Part shown: positions 9,013 through 48,329 of the stretch, in pieces
How the letters are laid out: the number at the start of each line of letters is the position of its first letter
Numbering within the stretch: the first letter of the stretch is position 1
Virus record (IMG/VR): IMGVR_UViG_3300028584_000072
Coordinates: 1 to 64,000 of that record
DNA from: a virus
Reading direction: 5' to 3' (one strand)
Length of the DNA stretch: 64,000 bases
The notes under the pieces: model-generated
What the model was told of the DNA's origin: nothing
Database searches by the model: none
What the model saw: only the letters and a program-made list of their open reading frames with translations
Translations under genes and position numbers: made by a program

Positions 9013-9374
9013 AATTAGATAATTTACCAAACATTGATAAAAAGTTCTATGACCCAGATTACGTAGTATCAATGTCAGATATTGCACAAACTACTTTCTG
9101 CAAAGAAGGGTATTGTGATACAATGGATGATAAAGTATTGAAAGCTGTACTTTATTTATTTGGCGTTGATGTCAATCGTGATTATTCTGAATCTAGTTTA
9201 GGGGAAGCTTCTTTTAGAAGCCCCTTCACTAATCAAGTACAAACTGGTGGTAATATCTTTACAGGGTTTGAACGTACTGATCCTGCTTGGAAGAAACAAG
9301 GATACCAAATCACTAGAGATTACTTGTTCGGCAACAAATTGAATGAAGTTATTAAATTATTAGAGAAGGAATAA
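9009..9374 (+). CDS. hypothetical protein (121 aa)
   Basis: ORF track. ATGA coupling to thyX. Confidence 0.5.
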   Translation: MKLDNLPNIDKKFYDPDYVVSMSDIAQTTFCKEGYCDTMDDKVLKAVLYLFGVDVNRDYSESSLGEASFRSPFTNQVQTGGNIFTGFERTDPAWKKQGYQITRDYLFGNKLNEVIKLLEKE

Positions 9375-9377
9375 TAG

Positions 9378-9587
9378 ATGTTTGAAGAAGGTTTGATTGT
9401 ATTTAGTGGTAAAGATTGCAAAGCTTGTGAAACCTTAAAATCAACATTAAGTGTTAAAGGTATTGAATACAAGGAGTATGATATTTGGAGTAACGCTGAA
9501 GCCTTACGTTTCATTATGTCTAAAGGTTTACGTGGTATTCCTCAATTGTTTAAAGATGGTGTTAAGGTAGGTATTGAAGATGCCTAA
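9378..9587 (+). CDS. glutaredoxin/NrdH-like redoxin
   Basis: 69 aa with a CKAC active-site motif near the N-terminus and a GIPQLF motif. It lies immediately upstream of nrdB and nrdA. Confidence 0.7.
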   Translation: MFEEGLIVFSGKDCKACETLKSTLSVKGIEYKEYDIWSNAEALRFIMSKGLRGIPQLFKDGVKVGIEDA

Positions 9588-10554
9588 ACCTAGACTACTA
9601 ACTAAGAAAGATACCTACACTGTAGACTATCCTGAAGCTGTAAAGTTTGCTGAAACACAGAACTCAATCTTCTGGACAGATAGTGAAATTGATGTGTCAA
9701 AGGATATTCAAGATATTAAAGTTAATATGACTGAATCAGAAGCTCATGGTGTTGTGACAACATTGAAGTTGTTTACATTATATGAGCTACAAGCAGGTAA
9801 TGAATATTGGGGTGGTCGTGTGAAACGACTATTCCCTCGACCTGCTGATGTCCAACGTATGGCTAATGCTTTTAGTTTCTTTGAGTTGAACGTACATGCA
9901 CCATTCTACAATAAATTGAATGAAGCATTACACTTGAATACAGACAGCTTTTATTCCGAATATGTGAATGACCCTGTGCTGAAAGAGCGTATGGAGTTCA
10001 TTGATAGCGTAGTTTCAGATAAAGACCCTCTGGTAAGTTTAGGTGTATTCAGTATGGTGGAGGGTGCTATTTTGTATAGTAGCTTTGCTTACTTGAAACA
10101 CTTCCAATCAGAAGGTAAGAATAAACTGTTAAACGTAGTACGTGGTATTAACTTCTCTGTTCGTGATGAAGCATTACATTCCGAAGGCGGTGCTTGGCTG
10201 TTTAAAGAGTTAAAGAAAGAATCTAACCTCACTAAAGAACAAGAGGAAACACTACACGCTAAGATCCTTGCTTGTGCTGAGAAGATTATGGAACACGAAG
10301 CTTACGTAATCCAGAAGATTTTCGAGAAGGGCAGTATTGAAGGGATTACTGACCATCAGCTTTTAAACTTCGTCAAGAGTCGTGTCAATGTTTGCTTACA
10401 ACAGTTGGACTATGGTAAGCTGTATGAAGTATCTTATAACCCTATTGCTAAATGGTTTTATAAGAACATCAACACTGTTCAATTCCATGACTTCTTTACT
10501 GGTGTAGGTAACTCTTACAACCGAGATTGGGATGAAACGAAGTTTGTTTTCTAA
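9580..10554 (+). CDS. nrdB: ribonucleotide reductase class I beta subunit
   Basis: Ferritin-like RNR small-subunit pattern (EAHGV..., VEGAILYSSFA, RDEALHSE). The ATG at 9580 is preferred over the TTG at 9574. Confidence 0.85.
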   Translation: MPKPRLLTKKDTYTVDYPEAVKFAETQNSIFWTDSEIDVSKDIQDIKVNMTESEAHGVVTTLKLFTLYELQAGNEYWGGRVKRLFPRPADVQRMANAFSFFELNVHAPFYNKLNEALHLNTDSFYSEYVNDPVLKERMEFIDSVVSDKDPLVSLGVFSMVEGAILYSSFAYLKHFQSEGKNKLLNVVRGINFSVRDEALHSEGGAWLFKELKKESNLTKEQEETLHAKILACAEKIMEHEAYVIQKIFEKGSIEGITDHQLLNFVKSRVNVCLQQLDYGKLYEVSYNPIAKWFYKNINTVQFHDFFTGVGNSYNRDWDETKFVF

Positions 10555-10564
10555 GGAGTAAAAA

Positions 10565-12277
10565 TTGACAAGTATTATTGAGAAGTTGAGTAGGGAACGA
10601 AAGGATCTACAAGCACAAGGAGAGTTACCGGATTGGTTGACTACCCAAGCTTGGCAACTACTAAAAGATAAGTATCTGTGGAATACGAATAGTCTTAAAG
10701 ATACATTTAGACGTATTGCCCGTACATTAGCTAAGCATGCTAAGACTAAACCTGAGTGGTGGTTAGCCACAGATACGTGGGAAGATAAATTCTTTGATGT
10801 ATTGTGGAAAGGTCATTTAGCTGCATCTACTCCGGTACTATCTAACACAGGAACAACGAAAGGTTGTCCAGTTAGTTGTAGTGGCAATTATGTACACGAT
10901 AGTATTCATGGCTTCTATGATGCACGTAAAGAGGTCGCTATCCTCACTAAGAACGGTTTTGGGACGTCTTCTTACTTAGGTGATATTAGGGCAAGGGGTA
11001 GTAAGATTGCTTCTGGTGGTAAGGCTAGTGGTGTATTACCTGTGTTCAAAGGCTTTGTACAGGATATGCGAGATGTAGCACAAGGGACTTCAAGACGCGG
11101 GGCTTGGGCGGGATATCTTGAGATTGACCATGATGACTTCTACGAGTTAGTTGACCATGTGTATCACTACCCTGACGATGCTAACGTAGGTTTTATCTAC
11201 TCTGATGCTTTCATTGAACGATTAAAGACTGGTGATAAGGATGCTACTGAGCGTTATCAGCGACACATGAAACTTCGAGCCGTAACAGGCAAAGGTTATT
11301 TCATGTTCTCTGATAAAGTGAACCGTCTTAACCCGCCAATGTATCGTGATAGAGGTATCGAAGTTAAAGCCTCTCAACTTTGTTCTGAGGTACTACTGTA
11401 CTCTGGTCAAGATATGACTTACACTTGCGTACTTAGTAGTTTAAACTTAACTAAGTGGGATGAGTGGAAAGATACTGATTGTGTGTTTGTATCTACTGTG
11501 TTCTTAGATTGTGTTGCTCAAGAATTTGTTGAACTTGGAAGAAACATTGTAGGTTTAGAGAAGGCTGTTTTGTTTACTGAAAAGAGTAGGGCACTCGGTT
11601 TGGGCGCATTAGGGATGCACTCTCTATTCCAAAGTAAGATGTTACCTTTTGAAAGTATGGAAGCACACCTACTTAACTTAGACATCTTTGAACATATTCA
11701 GAAAGAGGCTGAGAAGGCTAGCGAATGGATGGCTAAGGAATGGGGTGAACCTGAGTGGTGTAAAGGATACGGTAAACGTGCTACGCACCTAATGGCTATT
11801 GCACCTAATACAAGTTCAGCCTTGATTTGTGGTGGTGTTAGTCAGGGTATTGAACCTATTGTAGCTAACGTATACACTCAAAACTCTGCTGGTGGTGAGC
11901 TAGAGCGTATGAACCCTACATTGATTGGTATTATGAAGGGGCGTGGTGTTTATGATGAAGACCACATCCACGATGTAGCAGTTAACAACGGTAGTGTTCA
12001 GCATGTTGATTGGCTAACTCCGATTGAGAAGCAAGTATTTAAAACAGCCTATGAGATTGACCAGAAAGCTATTGTACGTTTAGCAAACGCTCGTTCACAG
12101 TTTATTGACCAAGGCACTTCATTGAATTTATTCTTTGATGCTGACGAAGATGAAGCTTACATTAGTGAAGTACATAAGGAAGCAATTCTTAGTCCTTATA
12201 TTAAAACCTTATACTACATGCGCTCCAAAGCTGGTGTATCTGCCAGTAAAGGTGAGTGTGTAGCTTGTGAAGGATAA
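10565..12277 (+). CDS. nrdA: ribonucleotide reductase class I alpha subunit (no ATP-cone)
   Basis: ASQLCSEV active-site loop and C-terminal CVAC pair. 570 aa with no N-terminal ATP-cone. TTG start after AAGGAG. Confidence 0.85.
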   Translation: MTSIIEKLSRERKDLQAQGELPDWLTTQAWQLLKDKYLWNTNSLKDTFRRIARTLAKHAKTKPEWWLATDTWEDKFFDVLWKGHLAASTPVLSNTGTTKGCPVSCSGNYVHDSIHGFYDARKEVAILTKNGFGTSSYLGDIRARGSKIASGGKASGVLPVFKGFVQDMRDVAQGTSRRGAWAGYLEIDHDDFYELVDHVYHYPDDANVGFIYSDAFIERLKTGDKDATERYQRHMKLRAVTGKGYFMFSDKVNRLNPPMYRDRGIEVKASQLCSEVLLYSGQDMTYTCVLSSLNLTKWDEWKDTDCVFVSTVFLDCVAQEFVELGRNIVGLEKAVLFTEKSRALGLGALGMHSLFQSKMLPFESMEAHLLNLDIFEHIQKEAEKASEWMAKEWGEPEWCKGYGKRATHLMAIAPNTSSALICGGVSQGIEPIVANVYTQNSAGGELERMNPTLIGIMKGRGVYDEDHIHDVAVNNGSVQHVDWLTPIEKQVFKTAYEIDQKAIVRLANARSQFIDQGTSLNLFFDADEDEAYISEVHKEAILSPYIKTLYYMRSKAGVSASKGECVACEG

Positions 12278-31090: not shown

Positions 31091-31710
31091 TATTCACCTG
31101 CCTTAGACTTGAGGGCATTGTCAAGTGCATCCGTATCCCCTGTAGTGCCAAATATAAATGTATCTTTAACAATGGTTCTCTCTGTTGAAGATTTACCACC
31201 ATTACTTGTAGAGCTACTGGTATCTTTTTTACCATCGACAACTCTTGTAGCTGATAACAGATTAACAGTCTCAGTGGTTGCTTTGCGTATCTGCACTATA
31301 GATATATCGAAGTATAAACTGTTAGATGACTCTGGATTGGCGGGGATAGATAGACTCTCCACGACACAATCATAATACGTGTCATACTTACTAACTAACG
31401 TGAAGGTTAGTCGTTCATCACGAAGTTTACGGAGGAAAGAGTACGCTTGAGGAATACGATCTGCTGTACGAGTGAGGGTGTCAGCTTGGAAATCATTAAT
31501 ACCATATTGACCAAAGATACCAGATACAGTGAAACGGTTATTTTTTAGCTGTACATGATCGGAGAATGACACGCCAGTTTCAACAGGATGTTCTGTAACG
31601 CTGTTGGAGAAGTCATGAGAAATACTCACAGTGCAATCTGCAAAGTATTTCTCACCAGCAATCTCACTCACGCCAGCTTTGAATTTATTAGCGACGATGA
31701 ATGTAATCAT
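31090..31710 (-). CDS. tail module protein (206 aa), function unknown
   Basis: ORF track. ATGA/TAATG-type coupling to the tape-measure exon 2 stop. Confidence 0.5.
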   Translation of the reverse strand: MITFIVANKFKAGVSEIAGEKYFADCTVSISHDFSNSVTEHPVETGVSFSDHVQLKNNRFTVSGIFGQYGINDFQADTLTRTADRIPQAYSFLRKLRDERLTFTLVSKYDTYYDCVVESLSIPANPESSNSLYFDISIVQIRKATTETVNLLSATRVVDGKKDTSSSTSNGGKSSTERTIVKDTFIFGTTGDTDALDNALKSKAGE

Positions 31711-32649
31711 TATTGACTTGTCTCCATTTGGTTGACGGCGTTGGTCGAGAGGGTTCTGTTGTCAACTGCGGCTGAAATAACTTTACTGAATTCACCGTCC
31801 TTGACTGTAACCGTTACATTAACTGGCTCTGTTGAACTAAAAGGATTCACTGCTCTAACAGCACGTTGCCATTGGTTCCCGAAAGAGCTAAAACCCTCCC
31901 TGTTGAAACCTACTTTACCCCCTAGAGTATCCGCACCAGTACCTAACAGAGAATCCTTACCTTTTAAAAAACCGTAGGTATCTTCAATTGCTAAAGGTAT
32001 TAATGCGAACCTTGCCATGTTCCGCATTAAGGCAATGAGTGTTACGTTAGCGCCACCTATGACATTTTGCAGTAGCTTGAATTTAGTAGCCAATATTGCT
32101 AATGTCCCCCCAGCACCTATGACAGCCCACATCTTACCACCAAGACCGAATGTGTCGGCACCTAATGCCCCCCATAACGTAGAGATGACATCTGTCAATA
32201 TTTCAAGAGGCGTTAATGCCAGTTTAATAGCACCTGTAAGTATGGAAATGGCCCCTTTAAATATACCGCCTAAAGCTTTAGCTAAAGGTTTTAATGTTTC
32301 GATGGAATCTGTAAATTTCTCAAACATATAAGAAAGTCCAGAGTCCATTCCACCCTTGAACATTTCCACTTTACCTTCGTCAAGTACGTTGAAGAATCGA
32401 GTCATCTCTGCTCTTGTTTTACCAAGCACAGCGCCCAGTGCCCCACCTTCCCTCGACATCCTTTTCATTTCTTCAGCAAACTTAGGTAAAACACCCTTCG
32501 ATTTAACTGAACCAGATTCTACGGCTTTAAAGAATGCGGTAATATCATCACCGTACCCTGCTGCACGAGACATAGCATCTACGCTGCCCCCTAGTGCCTC
32601 ACCCAGCTGCCCCGTAAGCTCCTCTTTATAGATTTGCCCTTTAGATGCC
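31710..32649 (-). CDS. tape measure protein, exon 2
   Basis: It starts (G)GCA TCT AAA GGG = ..ASKGQIYKEELTGQLGEALGG. Joined to exon 1 it gives ALQQ-M-ASKGQIYKEEL. C-terminal Gly-rich TM-like segments are typical of TMPs. Confidence 0.7.
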
Positions 32650-33547
32650 CATTTGTTCAAACTGAGTCGTTAATTCAGTCCCGCTTTATTTAAGCTGCTA
32701 TATGTTTCCATATAAGTTCAGACTATATCTTCACCCTCCAGTTAAGGAGGGGTTCCACGTTTCGAGCCACTTGGCTCTACTCCCCTTGGGGATAGTCGTT
32801 GGGAAGAATATCAGGGTATAACACAGTAATGTGTTTCCAAGTGGCACGATACCGAATTTTAGAAACTTGCTTCTGAGTGAGTCCCATACGTTTAGCTATG
32901 GATGCACTCGATGGTGGCTTCTTGCCAACATGTTCTACGAAATATATTCTACAAACTTCGTGAACTTGTTCTTCGGTCATACTGCACATACCATGATTAG
33001 TTCCAAACAAGATAAGGACTAAACCATCTCGCCTAGCATCTTCTAGGTTAGATAAGTTGGTTCCGTATTCAAGATTGGTATAATGGTTGTTTGTTTTATC
33101 GTTATCTTTGTGTTTAACGACAACAGTTTCACCATTGTAATCTTCGGTAGTGTAATCTAAGTGTGCCGGAAGTTCTACAAAACAGTCAGCTACCGCTCTG
33201 TGGACTTTCCTTGTAAACCTCTTACCTTTTAAACAGTATTGGAAATAAACGTAACCATCTTTGTTTATCCTGCAATACCATCTTGTCATTGTTTTTGAAT
33301 TAAATAGCTTACCGCATTGAGATACCAGAATCTTTTGGTATTCAGGCCAAGGTTTTAATTCACCCTCATAATCGTTCTGCTGATTGCCCATTTCTCCCTC
33401 CTATACTAAAAGGAAAGATCATATCACCAACTTTTCAAACTGTCAAGCTTATCGTCACCGATTACTTTGTAGTGTGGGATCTTTAGGATGTTCCAGCATA
33501 TAATGGAATTTTTCACTACACATTACTGTATAGGCAGACAACATTCT
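32650..33547 (-). mobile_element. group I intron (898 nt) with internal HNH homing-endonuclease ORF
   Basis: P1 pairs exon GCAGAU with intron GUCUGC (U:G at the splice site). P10 pairs AUGUU with the 3' exon GGCAU. The terminal base is G. It has GAAGAUAUAGUC (32721-32732), a J8/7-P7-like core, and a GAAA-capped hairpin. The junction restores the frame (1995 nt). Confidence 0.7.
32777..33391 (-). CDS. intron-encoded HNH homing endonuclease (HNH_3 type)
   Basis: KDGYVYFQ...KVHRAVADCF...VKHKDNDKTNNHYTNLEYGT. It has its own RBS GGAGGGAG inside the intron. Confidence 0.75.
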   Translation of the reverse strand: MGNQQNDYEGELKPWPEYQKILVSQCGKLFNSKTMTRWYCRINKDGYVYFQYCLKGKRFTRKVHRAVADCFVELPAHLDYTTEDYNGETVVVKHKDNDKTNNHYTNLEYGTNLSNLEDARRDGLVLILFGTNHGMCSMTEEQVHEVCRIYFVEHVGKKPPSSASIAKRMGLTQKQVSKIRYRATWKHITVLYPDILPNDYPQGE

Positions 33548-34602
33548 ATCTGCTGCAACGCACGAAACGCACGTTGATAATCTTCTTTTGATGCGCCAAG
33601 AACTGTAGCATATTCACTTACACCAGTAAACAAACTACGTTGCTGGTCTTTAGTTAGTGATGTCTTAGTTGCTATACTAAACTTAGTAAATTCTTTAGTC
33701 GCTGAACGTAAGTCAACACCTAACCTCATTGCTTCATCACGAATGAAACTCATGTGTTCAGCCACACCCGCATCATCTTTAGCAAACACTCTAGCTGATG
33801 CAGATAAACCCTCAAATTCCATCGCAGTGGTGGAAATATTCTGCACAACACTAAACGCCGTATAAGCAGCAGTTAATTGTACAAGCTCATTACGTAATGA
33901 TCTAAATGATACAGCATTAGCTCTAGTTACTCTGTCAGAGTTAACCATTTCATTCTTTGTTTCATTTAGGCGTTGTCTAAATGTTTCAAGAGCGCGAGGT
34001 TGGGTAGGGTCAATAACTCTTAATGCTTCTTCCTTAGCAGCACCAAGGCGACTTTGCATTTCATTACGTTCCGCTTGACCTATACTTCTTTGAGTGAAGT
34101 ATTGTCTCAGTTGACTCTCTTTAATCTTGTAAAAGTTATCAACACCAGCTTCAAAGTCTGTTCTATTTCTCTTAGCTCTAGCAGTTTGTTTAGCTTGCTG
34201 TGCATCATGCTTATCTTTTTGTTTAATAAGATTAGCGGCTGCTCTGTCCTCATCCCTTAACATCTGAGCAAACATTGTTCTACTTGCTGGACTAGATAAA
34301 GCTGTTGCTGGAAATAAATGAGCAAGTCTACCGCTCATGTCAGCATTTTTATTTGAAGTTCTTACATTACCACTATACTTCTGTGTAGCTGCTGCTACTT
34401 TCTTTTCAGCATTTACTGTAGCATTAGCTACTTTATTTATTTGTTGAACGACAGCATTAACTTTAATGGACTTATCCATACCTGTCATCTGTCGTTTGAT
34501 TGAAGTAAGTTTAGACTGGAATAACGCTAAGTTGTCCCATGATTTCTTATCAATGTTAAATCGGACTTTCCCGACTACACTACCGACTACGTTTTCTGCC
34601 AC
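33548..34602 (-). CDS. tape measure protein, exon 1
   Basis: GTG start, long alpha-helical sequence, ending ..QRAFRALQQ(M). The in-frame run-on into the intron stops after 8 codons. Confidence 0.7.
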
Positions 34603-44566: not shown

Positions 44567-44854
44567 CATTGTATTTACTACCACTCGCTACTGTGATAGC
44601 CATATGGCTTTAACTTTCGCTAAAGATTAGGTCATATCTTCACTTCTAAGAAGTGCCTTCCGTTTCGCTGCGCTTGCAGCTACGAGCATTGCTCTGACCG
44701 TCGAACGTTCTCCTATTCGGAGCTTCGCTGCTGATTGCCTAATACACTTAATTTTCAAACATTCACGCTCAGGTTTATTTCATCCTCACGTTGTAGTTTA
44801 AGTGTCTTAAAGGGTTTCCAGCAATTAAAAAGGTTTACCCTCAGCATAGAGTCT
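44567..44854 (-). mobile_element. ORF-less group I intron 2 in terL (288 nt)
   Basis: P1 pairs exon CUCAGU with intron GCUGAG (U:G). P10 pairs UCUA with exon-3 UAGA. The terminal base is G (44567). It has a P8-like hairpin plus GAAGAUAUGACC (44630-44641). Its core is homologous to intron 1. Confidence 0.65.
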
Positions 44855-45411: not shown

Positions 45412-45534
45412 AGCTCCACCGCCAAAGAACACAATACTTTCTTTGGCATTAGCAAACTCTAGCTGCTTAGGTTGTAATTTGATTTCAGGTATATTTCGGA
45501 TAGGGGTCTTTCTGATATTATGTTGTTTTGTCAT
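45412..45534 (-). CDS. terL: terminase large subunit, exon 1
   Basis: The RBS GAAGGA and the ATG 45534 both lie inside the 3' end of the HNH ORF. Sequence is MTKQHNIRKTPIRNIPEIKLQPKQLEFANAKESIVFFGGGA. Joined to exon 2 it gives the Walker A sequence FFGGGAGGGKT. Confidence 0.7.
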
Positions 45535-46231
45535 ATATTTCCTTCATAAACTTATCGAATACATCTCTCCGTCTGCTACCATTAACTATCCTACTAATTT
45601 GTGCAGCAGATAACTTATATTCTTCACATAAAGTTTTCTGAGGTATATTATTACAATGAGCTTTGATTAAAAGCTCTAAGATTAAATCATCATCGTGTTT
45701 GGCTGTTGTACGCTGTTCAAATTTATCTGATTTTACGATTCCAGTAATTTCAGAAAATCTACGTCCAGTTACAATCTCACTAATTGCATCAGCCCTGCAC
45801 TCTAAGTTATATTTTTCTTTAAGATCTTTATGTGAAGCACCATTTTTGTAGTCTGATACAACAGACAACATTTCTTCTTTAGTTAAAGAAGATAGTGTTC
45901 TTTTCCCAATACCATTAACGTAATAATGTACAGTATTGTGAGTGTAAGTACACCACTCTAAATTAGAGTAATGGTTATTACTTACGTTCAAATCTTTATG
46001 ATTTATAATTGGTAGATTATTTTGGTTATCTAGAAATGCTGAAGCGACTAAACGATGTACTCGTAGGTCGTGTCTAACTTTATTCTCAGTAAGATTTACA
46101 GCCAGATACCCATCTTTATCTAATTTAGGTTTCAGCATTTTTCCAGATTTGTAATAGCTATAAATATCTCCATATTCAGAGATTTTATACATAGGGAAAT
46201 CTGGGATAACTCGCCACTCAATATTGTTCAT
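45518..46231 (-). CDS. free-standing HNH homing endonuclease (I-HmuI-like: NUMOD4 + HNH_3 + HTH repeats)
   Basis: WRVIPDFPMYKISEYGDIYS, DGYLAVNL...RVHRLVASAF...INHKDLNVSNNHYSNLEWCT. The 3' end overlaps the terL start by 17 nt. Confidence 0.8.
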   Translation of the reverse strand: MNNIEWRVIPDFPMYKISEYGDIYSYYKSGKMLKPKLDKDGYLAVNLTENKVRHDLRVHRLVASAFLDNQNNLPIINHKDLNVSNNHYSNLEWCTYTHNTVHYYVNGIGKRTLSSLTKEEMLSVVSDYKNGASHKDLKEKYNLECRADAISEIVTGRRFSEITGIVKSDKFEQRTTAKHDDDLILELLIKAHCNNIPQKTLCEEYKLSAAQISRIVNGSRRRDVFDKFMKEIYDKTT

Positions 46232-48251: not shown

Positions 48252-48329
48252 TGGTAGCCCCTGAAGGATTTGAACCTATCTACCTTTCCCTTATGAGGGG
48301 ACTGCTCATACCAAATGAGCTTAGAGGCT
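48252..48329 (-). tRNA. tRNA-Met-like (anticodon CAU; could be Ile2/fMet), CCA encoded
   Basis: Acceptor AGCCUCU/AGGGGCU, D arm GCUC..GAGC, anticodon loop CUCAUAA, T arm GA(U)AGG-UUCAAAU-CCUUC with one bulged U, then ACCA. Confidence 0.6.

Follow-up and report, generated by a model that had tools for sequence, protein, structure and literature searches.

How can a terminase large-subunit gene that runs into a stop codon just after its Walker B motif still encode a complete protein? The question is raised by terL of a phage, on the minus strand of the 64,000-nucleotide (nt) stretch analysed here (the window; positions 1 to 64,000 of IMG/VR virus record IMGVR_UViG_3300028584_000072). In the window, terL appears as three raw open reading frames (ORFs), at 45534-45403 (43 amino acids, aa), 45101-44853 (82 aa) and 44603-43506 (365 aa). 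The second of them ends, as the original prediction made from the DNA letters had read it, with ...EEAQ (GAA GAA GCT CAG T, the T being 44855), followed at once by an in-frame TAG. Our analysis indicates, with a probability of about 0.93, that the next 288 nt, 44854-44567 on the minus strand, are a group I intron, ORF-less and of IA2-like architecture, that interrupts the terminase large-subunit gene (intron 2). Its boundaries, its fold, its conservation with covariation and its presence or absence among close relatives are established, and we infer that it is catalytic and self-splicing.

The exons account for the whole of the large terminase subunit (TerL). Exon 1 (45534-45412, minus strand, as are all terL coordinates below; 123 nt, 41 codons) ends within Walker A (FFGGGA), and intron 1 (45411-45171, 241 nt), which is likewise ORF-less and is related to intron 2, is inserted in that motif. 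By translation and homologue alignment, exon 2 (45170-44855, 316 nt) runs from the rest of Walker A (GGGKT) to Walker B and the catalytic Glu (AFFEE), followed by AQ and the first base of the Phe147 codon. Intron 2 starts with A 44854 and ends with the terminal G (omega-G) 44567, and it is inserted in phase 1 of codon 147 of terL, two codons past the Walker B/catalytic Glu motif. Exon 3 (44566-43506, 1061 nt including the stop codon) opens with UU AGA AGU (F-RS). Splicing after G 44567, where the original prediction had placed the 3' splice site, gives the junction codon U+UU, which is Phe, and the ligated reading FFEEAQ-F-RSQYQFDVIRSRNRS. The joined exons sum to the predicted 1500 nt (123+316+1061) and encode a 499-aa TerL with Pfam domains Terminase_6N (residues 37-290) and Terminase_6C. 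The proposed fit to TerL also held, in that the spliced protein aligned without gaps across EEAQ|FRS to 20 homologues of 50-98% identity, which read ...(F/Y)EE(A/G/F)Q|(F/Y)R(S/T).YQF.... A phmmer search of PDB sequences with the spliced TerL gave no match, so the Walker B assignment rests on the hhhh(D/E)E pattern in the homologue alignment and on Pfam Terminase_6N. Splice sites moved by one base were rejected, as they would replace the conserved Q-(F/Y)-R with Q-V-R and violate the requirement that the exon end in U and the intron in G.

A natural allele shows the same gene with the DNA removed. The related locus L001, which is the source of public protein P0001 (NCBI assembly GCA_054403835.1) and whose TerL is 98% identical, keeps intron 1 and is missing precisely 44854-44567. 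Its sequence is GCTCAATTCAGAAGT at the place where ligation of the window's exons is predicted to give GCTCAGTTTAGAAGT, both encoding AQFRS, and over a longer stretch GAAGAAGCTCAATTCAGAAGTCAATACC against GAAGAAGCTCAGTTTAGAAGTCAATACC. Around the insertion point, called site C below, 88 of 90 flanking bases are identical between L001 and the window, with no indel and with both differences synonymous. L007 and L008 form a second set of intron-less alleles, relative to the intron-carrying L158 and L181. The site-C intron is present in the window, L011, L181 and L158, and is absent from L001, L002, L003, L007, L008 and others; an example of the intron-less sequence is ...GAAGAAGCTCAATTCAGAAGT.... 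An intein, a frameshift and readthrough were ruled out by the in-frame UAG at the splice site together with the natural allele without the DNA.

The intron-carrying alleles fall in diverged genes. L011 (IMG/VR contig 3300047558_000134) and L181/L158 (two JGI metagenome contigs) have a homologous intron at the identical codon position, and these copies are 88-92% identical to intron 2 of the window, but the identity of the spliced terL coding DNA is lower, at 65-78%. A metagenome scan with the intron 21-mer GAACGTTCGACGGTCAGAGCA gave no match; a scan with a second pattern gave 31 loci, among which the only same-site copies were L158 and L181. A 21-mer from the P5 extension (described below) had no match in genome contigs and therefore gave no clue to the host. 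Megablast of the 3-kb region against cultured phages also returned no match, and there is therefore no annotated close relative.

Intron 2 is recognised by the Rfam family model. A covariance search with RF00028, by which the original prediction had suggested checking the intron, gave 67.5 bits, where the gathering score is 50, with E 5.7e-15 over all of the 64-kb window (match at 44893-44608). The match is full-length (model positions 1-253) and is the sole above-threshold RF00028 match in the window. Motif GGCAATNNNNAGCGAAGCNC has two occurrences in the window, one per terL intron, where 0.02 would be expected.

The two pairings that define the splice sites had been foreseen, and both were found. 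P1 (44860-44854 with 44846-44840) joins exon CUCAGU and the first A of the intron to the internal guide UGCUGAG over 7 base pairs; its core is the predicted pairing of CUCAGU (44860-44855) with GCUGAG (44845-44840), to which A44854-U44846 adds one pair. The wobble U44855.G44845 in P1 marks the 5' splice site, and L011 and L181 share both this feature and the terminal G that is 44567 in the window. P10 joins guide UCUA (44850-44847) to exon-3 UAGA (44565-44562), with 92% of cells paired in the close copies. All intron-carrying alleles read GCU CAG U|UU AGA, which fits P1 and P10, and the Gln codon is CAA in nine of the ten closest intron-less alleles. The exon G at -2 pairs with a guide C, so the exon appears constrained by P1.

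Six nucleotides, without a P2, lead from P1 to P3 (44833-44828 with 44661-44656; CCUUUU/GGAAGG). P4 (44823-44818 with 44734-44729; UGCUGG/UCAGCA) is followed by P5 (44813-44811 with 44740-44738) and P5a (44805-44798 with 44751-44744; ACACUUAA/UUAAGUGU), and the P5 extension of about 75 nt (within 44813-44738) is conserved in an intron of the tape-measure gene of Vibrio phage ICP1. P6/P6a (44728-44705) consists of GC...GU and CUCC/GGAG, with four of four P6a pairs covarying. P7, the guanosine-binding site of group I introns, is formed by 44699-44695 with 44634-44630 (GGUCA/UGACC). P8 (44655-44641; CACUUC-UUA-GAAGUG) is followed by J8/7 (44640-44635; AAGAUA), P9 (44625-44608; CUUUAGC-GAAA-GUUAAAG, with the GNRA loop GAAA at 44618-44615) and P9.2 (44599-44578; CUAUCAC/GUGGUAG), whose loop motif GUAGCGA is shared with intron 1. 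P8 and P9.2 each have two compensatory pairs in the close copies. Between P7 and the 3' strand of P3 lie P7.1 (44694-44684; GAGC/GCUC) and P7.2 (44680-44667; GCUGC/GCAGC), both with compensatory changes; hairpins of this kind are typical of subgroup IA and mark IA2 (PMC3984707). By this criterion the architecture points to subgroup IA2. The unconstrained minimum-energy fold of intron 2 recovered P1, P4, P5/P5a, P6a, P7, P7.1, P7.2, P8, P9 and P9.2.

The pairing scheme is conserved through sequence change. In the three close copies (window, L011 and L181), 99.1% of cells pair and 10 pairs are changed on both sides; none of 500 shuffles reached this level, and slid controls gave at most one such pair. 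The seventh pair of P1, for example, is A-U in the window and G-C in L011. A covariance model, R1, was built from these three copies with P7 left out, and MAFFT alignments of introns 1 and 2 were dropped for pair counts, because MAFFT misaligned the 5' end, P7.1/P7.2 and P9. Searches with R1 of 57 fetched loci and the window (the latter with default filters) gave 64 matches, 54 of them distinct. Results showed that 96.1% of cells pair in the 54 distinct relatives (61% if shuffled) and that 64 of the 70 pairs covary, among them six of six in P3 and seven of seven in P1, the latter across insertion sites and tracking the differing exon contexts. P7 pairs in 95% of cells in the same relatives, and three of its five pairs covary by alternation of G-C with A-U and of C-G with U-A. 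This pairing was not favoured by the alignment, because P7 lies outside model R1. The conserved core from P3 to P9, P3/P7 pseudoknot included, is backed by covariation.

Support for a group I fold thus comes from covariation and, weakly, from thermodynamics, and several points weigh against the intron as described. The RF00028 alignment is wrong at the 5' end (P1/P2) and shifts P1 into the exon, and for P1 and P10 the evidence is therefore our own reading together with covariation. The thermodynamic signal is modest, with a z of -2.14 and with 4 of 200 shuffles folding as well as the native sequence. The pair counts of every helix but P7 are inflated, because the 54-relative alignment was fitted to the R1 structure. 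Some phage group I introns are known to splice in vivo but not in vitro (PMC11878797), and strict self-splicing of intron 2 is therefore not assured.

The pathway that we propose for intron 2 is the established group I route. In the pre-mRNA, P1 would form between the last six bases of exon 2 (CUCAGU) and the internal guide GCUGAG, and an external guanosine held in P7 (GGUCA/UGACC) would attack after U44855. P10 (UCUA with exon-3 UAGA) and the terminal G 44567 would then set the 3' splice site, and exon ligation would produce ...GCU CAG UUU AGA..., restoring a single 499-aa TerL (EEAQ-F-RS). If the RNA stayed unspliced, translation would stop at the UAG of the splice site, and the Walker A/Walker B part of the N-terminal ATPase region would be severed from the remainder.

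Such a severed state is what a decayed, non-splicing intron would leave, with TerL made as two polypeptides: one N-terminal, terminated by the UAG, and one of 365 aa that begins at ATG 44603. This ORF does exist, a public 365-aa protein that is 98% identical (P0014) covers the same part of TerL, and essential phage genes in functional pieces are known (cited in PMC10448857). The core helices of intron 2, however, are all intact and have been kept by compensatory changes in three lineages, and the exon bases for P1 and P10 are retained in intron-carrying alleles. ATG 44603 lies inside intron 2, as the original prediction had pointed out, within the short palindrome GCCAUAUGGC, and by eye no Shine-Dalgarno-like purine run stands directly upstream of it (AAAGCCAUAUG). 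Moreover, the 12 residues that the ORF gains from this ATG have no counterpart in any homologue, and the split would cut inside the N-terminal ATPase region (Terminase_6N). We consider a split TerL highly improbable.

The interruption has a practical consequence, in that gene callers break this terL into fragments. Public protein P0001, of 435 aa, starts at a GTG inside exon 2, and P0014 corresponds to the window ORF that starts at the intronic ATG 44603. Several public TerL entries of this clade are 306-373 aa long, and these short entries may likewise be gene calls cut by unrecognised introns. TerL is a standard marker for phage phylogeny and for the prediction of packaging mechanism, and truncated TerL entries therefore mislead both.

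Intron 2 is related to intron 1 in part. The original prediction had called the two cores clearly homologous; the homology is real, with a common core and an R1 score of 59.7 bits for intron 1, but it is partial, with about 60% identity overall. The common segment comprises the 3' strand of P4 through P6, J6/7, P7, J8/7 and the P9.2 loop GUAGCGA, and the strings GCGAAGCTCCGAATAGGAGAACGT and GAAGATATGACC of intron 2 match their intron 1 counterparts GCGAAGCTCTTGATAGAGAACGT and GAAGATATGATC. The two introns differ by compensatory changes in P3, P4, P6a, P7 and P8. Intron 1 is real; it scored 37 bits with RF00028, which is under the threshold (E 4e-7 in a local scan), and its same-site copy in L001 is 99.6% identical.

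The two halves of intron 2 resemble different introns. The 5' half (nt 6-143: guide, P3, P4, P5 extension and P6) shares 81% identity with the ICP1 tape-measure intron that lies directly downstream of the HNH endonuclease gene ORF80; L192 also has it, in a tape-measure gene intron, as does L156, in a DNA polymerase III alpha-like gene. Walker-A introns belonging to a distant type of terL match a stretch of the 3' half (nt 171-234) at about 82% identity. Reverse-transcription PCR (RT-PCR) has verified that ICP1 terL and the ICP1 tape-measure gene are spliced (PMC10448857).

A third group I intron was observed in the window at roughly 32652-33522 (minus strand), between ORFs 33523-34602 and 31710-32660. 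From its position and the ICP1-like arrangement, the gene that it splits looks like a tape-measure gene. The intron scored 38.4 bits with RF00028 at 32698-32963, and R1 gave 25.7 bits on its 3' part (32652-32873) and 15.7 bits on a P4-P5 piece (33378-33498). It contains an HNH/NUMOD4 endonuclease ORF (32777-33391, 204 aa), which parallels ICP1.

Intron 2 itself holds no endonuclease ORF, its sole internal ORF being a 43-aa TTG-start frame over the ribozyme core. Any movement of intron 2 would therefore depend on trans-acting factors or on ordinary recombination of co-infecting phages. A candidate for such a mobility factor is the free-standing gene at 45518-46231 (minus strand), which overlaps the start of terL by 17 nt and encodes a 237-aa I-HmuI-like HNH/NUMOD4 homing endonuclease (Pfam NUMOD4; PDB 1U3E, E 5e-14; PHROG 59, HNH endonuclease). 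In collaborative homing, this endonuclease would nick or cut intron-less terL at or near site C, and repair templated on the genome with the intron would copy the intron in, by itself or along with the endonuclease gene. Besides its place against terL and its clear I-HmuI-like character, the gene has a homologue with 86% protein identity in the same place in the intron-carrying L158/L181, whereas that slot is filled by an unrelated HNH_3 gene (L001 599-1264) in intron-less L001 and lacks an endonuclease gene in intron-less L007/L008. In two independent pairs, the gene is thus present with the intron and absent from the intron-less relative. In both pairs, too, the differences per 100 nt increase from about 2-4 to about 9-26 within 100 nt downstream of site C, and the close intron-less alleles have CAA rather than CAG at the site. 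Precedents are the like gene arrangement at ICP1 terL and the cleavage of insertion sites by free-standing endonucleases of T3/T7-like phages and a cyanophage (PMC10448857, PMC3984707).

Other observations sit poorly with homing by this endonuclease. L011 carries the intron, yet has no such gene within 2.2 kb upstream, and L187 has a 97% identical endonuclease beside a terL with just 33% identity and no intron at site C. Conservation is higher in the intron (92%, window against L181) than in the endonuclease gene region (about 82% at the DNA level, window against L158), so the two are not obviously one travelling unit. The step in divergence could equally have come from a 288-nt insertion that blocks branch migration or limits recombination tracts. 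We therefore hold collaborative homing at site C to be possible but doubtful. A strict linkage of endonuclease gene and intron was ruled out by L011 (intron without gene) and L187 (gene without site-C intron).

Mosaicism is visible in the region itself. In the pairs window/L001 and L158/L008, identity is about 97-98% upstream of site C and about 90% within 100 nt downstream, and the intron site therefore coincides with a mosaic boundary. The 97% identical copy of the endonuclease gene in L187 (4001-4708) lies between flanks that share about 86% DNA identity with the window, and the whole terL module was exchanged, with the endonuclease gene at the boundary. Among close relatives, the slot upstream of terL holds differing endonuclease genes.

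Alternatively, intron 2 may be an immobile passenger that lost its own endonuclease ORF, its patchy distribution being produced by ordinary homologous recombination and occasional precise loss rather than by active homing. We give this explanation about even odds. Intron 2 is ORF-less, with the 43-aa frame across its core as its only ORF, and related introns with endonuclease ORFs occur in the presumed tape-measure gene of the window, in L156, in L168 and in phage J2-1, so loss of the ORF is plausible. For ICP1, endonuclease genes have been proposed to turn over and leave empty introns (PMC10448857), and mosaic terL modules are evident here. The identity of the intron (88-92%) where the terL exons are 65-78% identical hints, on the other hand, at transfer more recent than descent, although constraint on the ribozyme could also account for high identity across lineages, and the evidence fits homing in trans as well. 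The natural pairs of intron-carrying and intron-less alleles make homing directly testable.

Site C is one of several intron sites in this gene. Among the relatives of the window, group I introns occupy at least five terL sites. Site A lies in Walker A (residues 39-43, three positions 6-9 nt apart) and is occupied in the window, L001, L004, L005, L007, L008, L011 and L181/L158, and probably in L016 and L022. Site B, at Trp132, is occupied in L007, L008 and L181/L158, and site C, at Phe147 (intron 2), in the window, L011 and L181/L158. Site D (residues 68/69) is occupied in L014 and site E (residues 123/124) in L022. The site-A introns lie in Gly-rich Walker A codons (GG|GAGGGKT, GGGA|GGGKT and GGGAGG|GKT), with each guide sequence fitted to its own exon, as if the introns had slid along the repeated GGN codons. 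In L181 (1678-2781) and L158 (5395-6508), sites A, B and C of terL are all occupied, with a 45-nt exon from B to C. Three introns and so short an exon make exon skipping possible in L181/L158 terL, and exon skipping has been reported for terL of Bacillus phage SIOphi (PMC11878797).

These distributions allow a wider proposal, which we put forward as speculative and rather unlikely in its entirety. Codon 147, just after Walker B, would be an undescribed homing site, served in trans by the I-HmuI-like HNH endonuclease encoded next to terL, which would cut CAA-type intron-less alleles and leave the step in divergence within 100 nt (two pairs) as its footprint. More broadly, one small ORF-less group I intron family would have colonised at least five terL sites in this phage clade (up to three per gene) as well as tape-measure and DNA polymerase III alpha genes, apparently partly by exchange of 5' and 3' halves.

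Much of this has parallels in known systems. Phage introns of subgroup IA2 share with intron 2 the P7.1/P7.2 hairpins between P7 and the 3' strand of P3, a short P6/P6a, the U.G pair in P1 and the terminal G; intron 2 differs from them in having no P2 and a large P5 extension, and its assignment is by architecture. The IA2 introns of T4 (td, nrdB and nrdD) and of the SPO1 and Pf-WMP3 DNA polymerase genes interrupt conserved essential host genes, as intron 2 does in terL (PMC3984707, PMC3428280), and terminase genes count among the usual intron targets in phages (PMC3984707). Group I introns in terL, in some cases two or three per gene, and ORF-less introns beside free-standing endonuclease genes are already documented (PMC11878797, PMC10448857, PMC3984707). 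Intron 2 leaves the understanding of group I introns unchanged and would not surprise a specialist; what it adds to the list of terL introns is a precisely mapped site, phase 1 of codon 147.

ICP1 (Barth et al. 2023, PMC10448857) is a distant relative, with a TerL 35% identical to that of the window. Its terL is split by an ORF-less intron at Walker A, a free-standing endonuclease gene abuts exon 1, and its tape-measure gene has three introns, with an HNH endonuclease gene inside one of them, as in the presumed tape-measure gene of the window. By eye, the ICP1 terL intron shares the core motifs GAUGAGUGUA and GAAGAUAUGAUCC with intron 1 of the window, and R1 gave 29.7 bits on it. ICP1 differs in that its single terL intron is at Walker A, with none at the post-Walker-B site, and in that the neighbouring endonuclease is of T5orf172 type, not I-HmuI-like HNH. 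Its tape-measure intron is not close to intron 2 in the 3' half, and splicing was shown there by RT-PCR, whereas for intron 2 it is predicted from sequence.

Bacillus phages of the Bastillevirinae resemble the clade studied here in having terL with two or three group I introns and small internal exons, and splicing of their terL has been shown in vitro or in vivo (PMC11878797). They differ in their Gram-positive hosts and unrelated TerL family, and their introns are mostly long (mean 802 nt) and carry endonuclease ORFs. Known collaborative homing systems (the psbA intron of cyanophage S-PM2 with F-CphI, and T3/T7-like phages; PMC3984707, PMC6083498, PMC2790892) likewise combine an ORF-less intron in an essential gene with an adjoining free-standing homing-endonuclease gene, but the endonuclease of the window is only a candidate, and its co-occurrence with intron 2 is imperfect.

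Two further observations were made. On the 178-kb metagenomic contig L176, four group I introns above the Rfam threshold lie within 2.6 kb (9233-11853). The window has a tRNA gene (RF00005, 44.7 bits) at 48255-48329 (minus strand), about 2 kb upstream of both terL and the endonuclease gene, and tRNA genes also lie directly upstream of terL in L007, L008 and L158.

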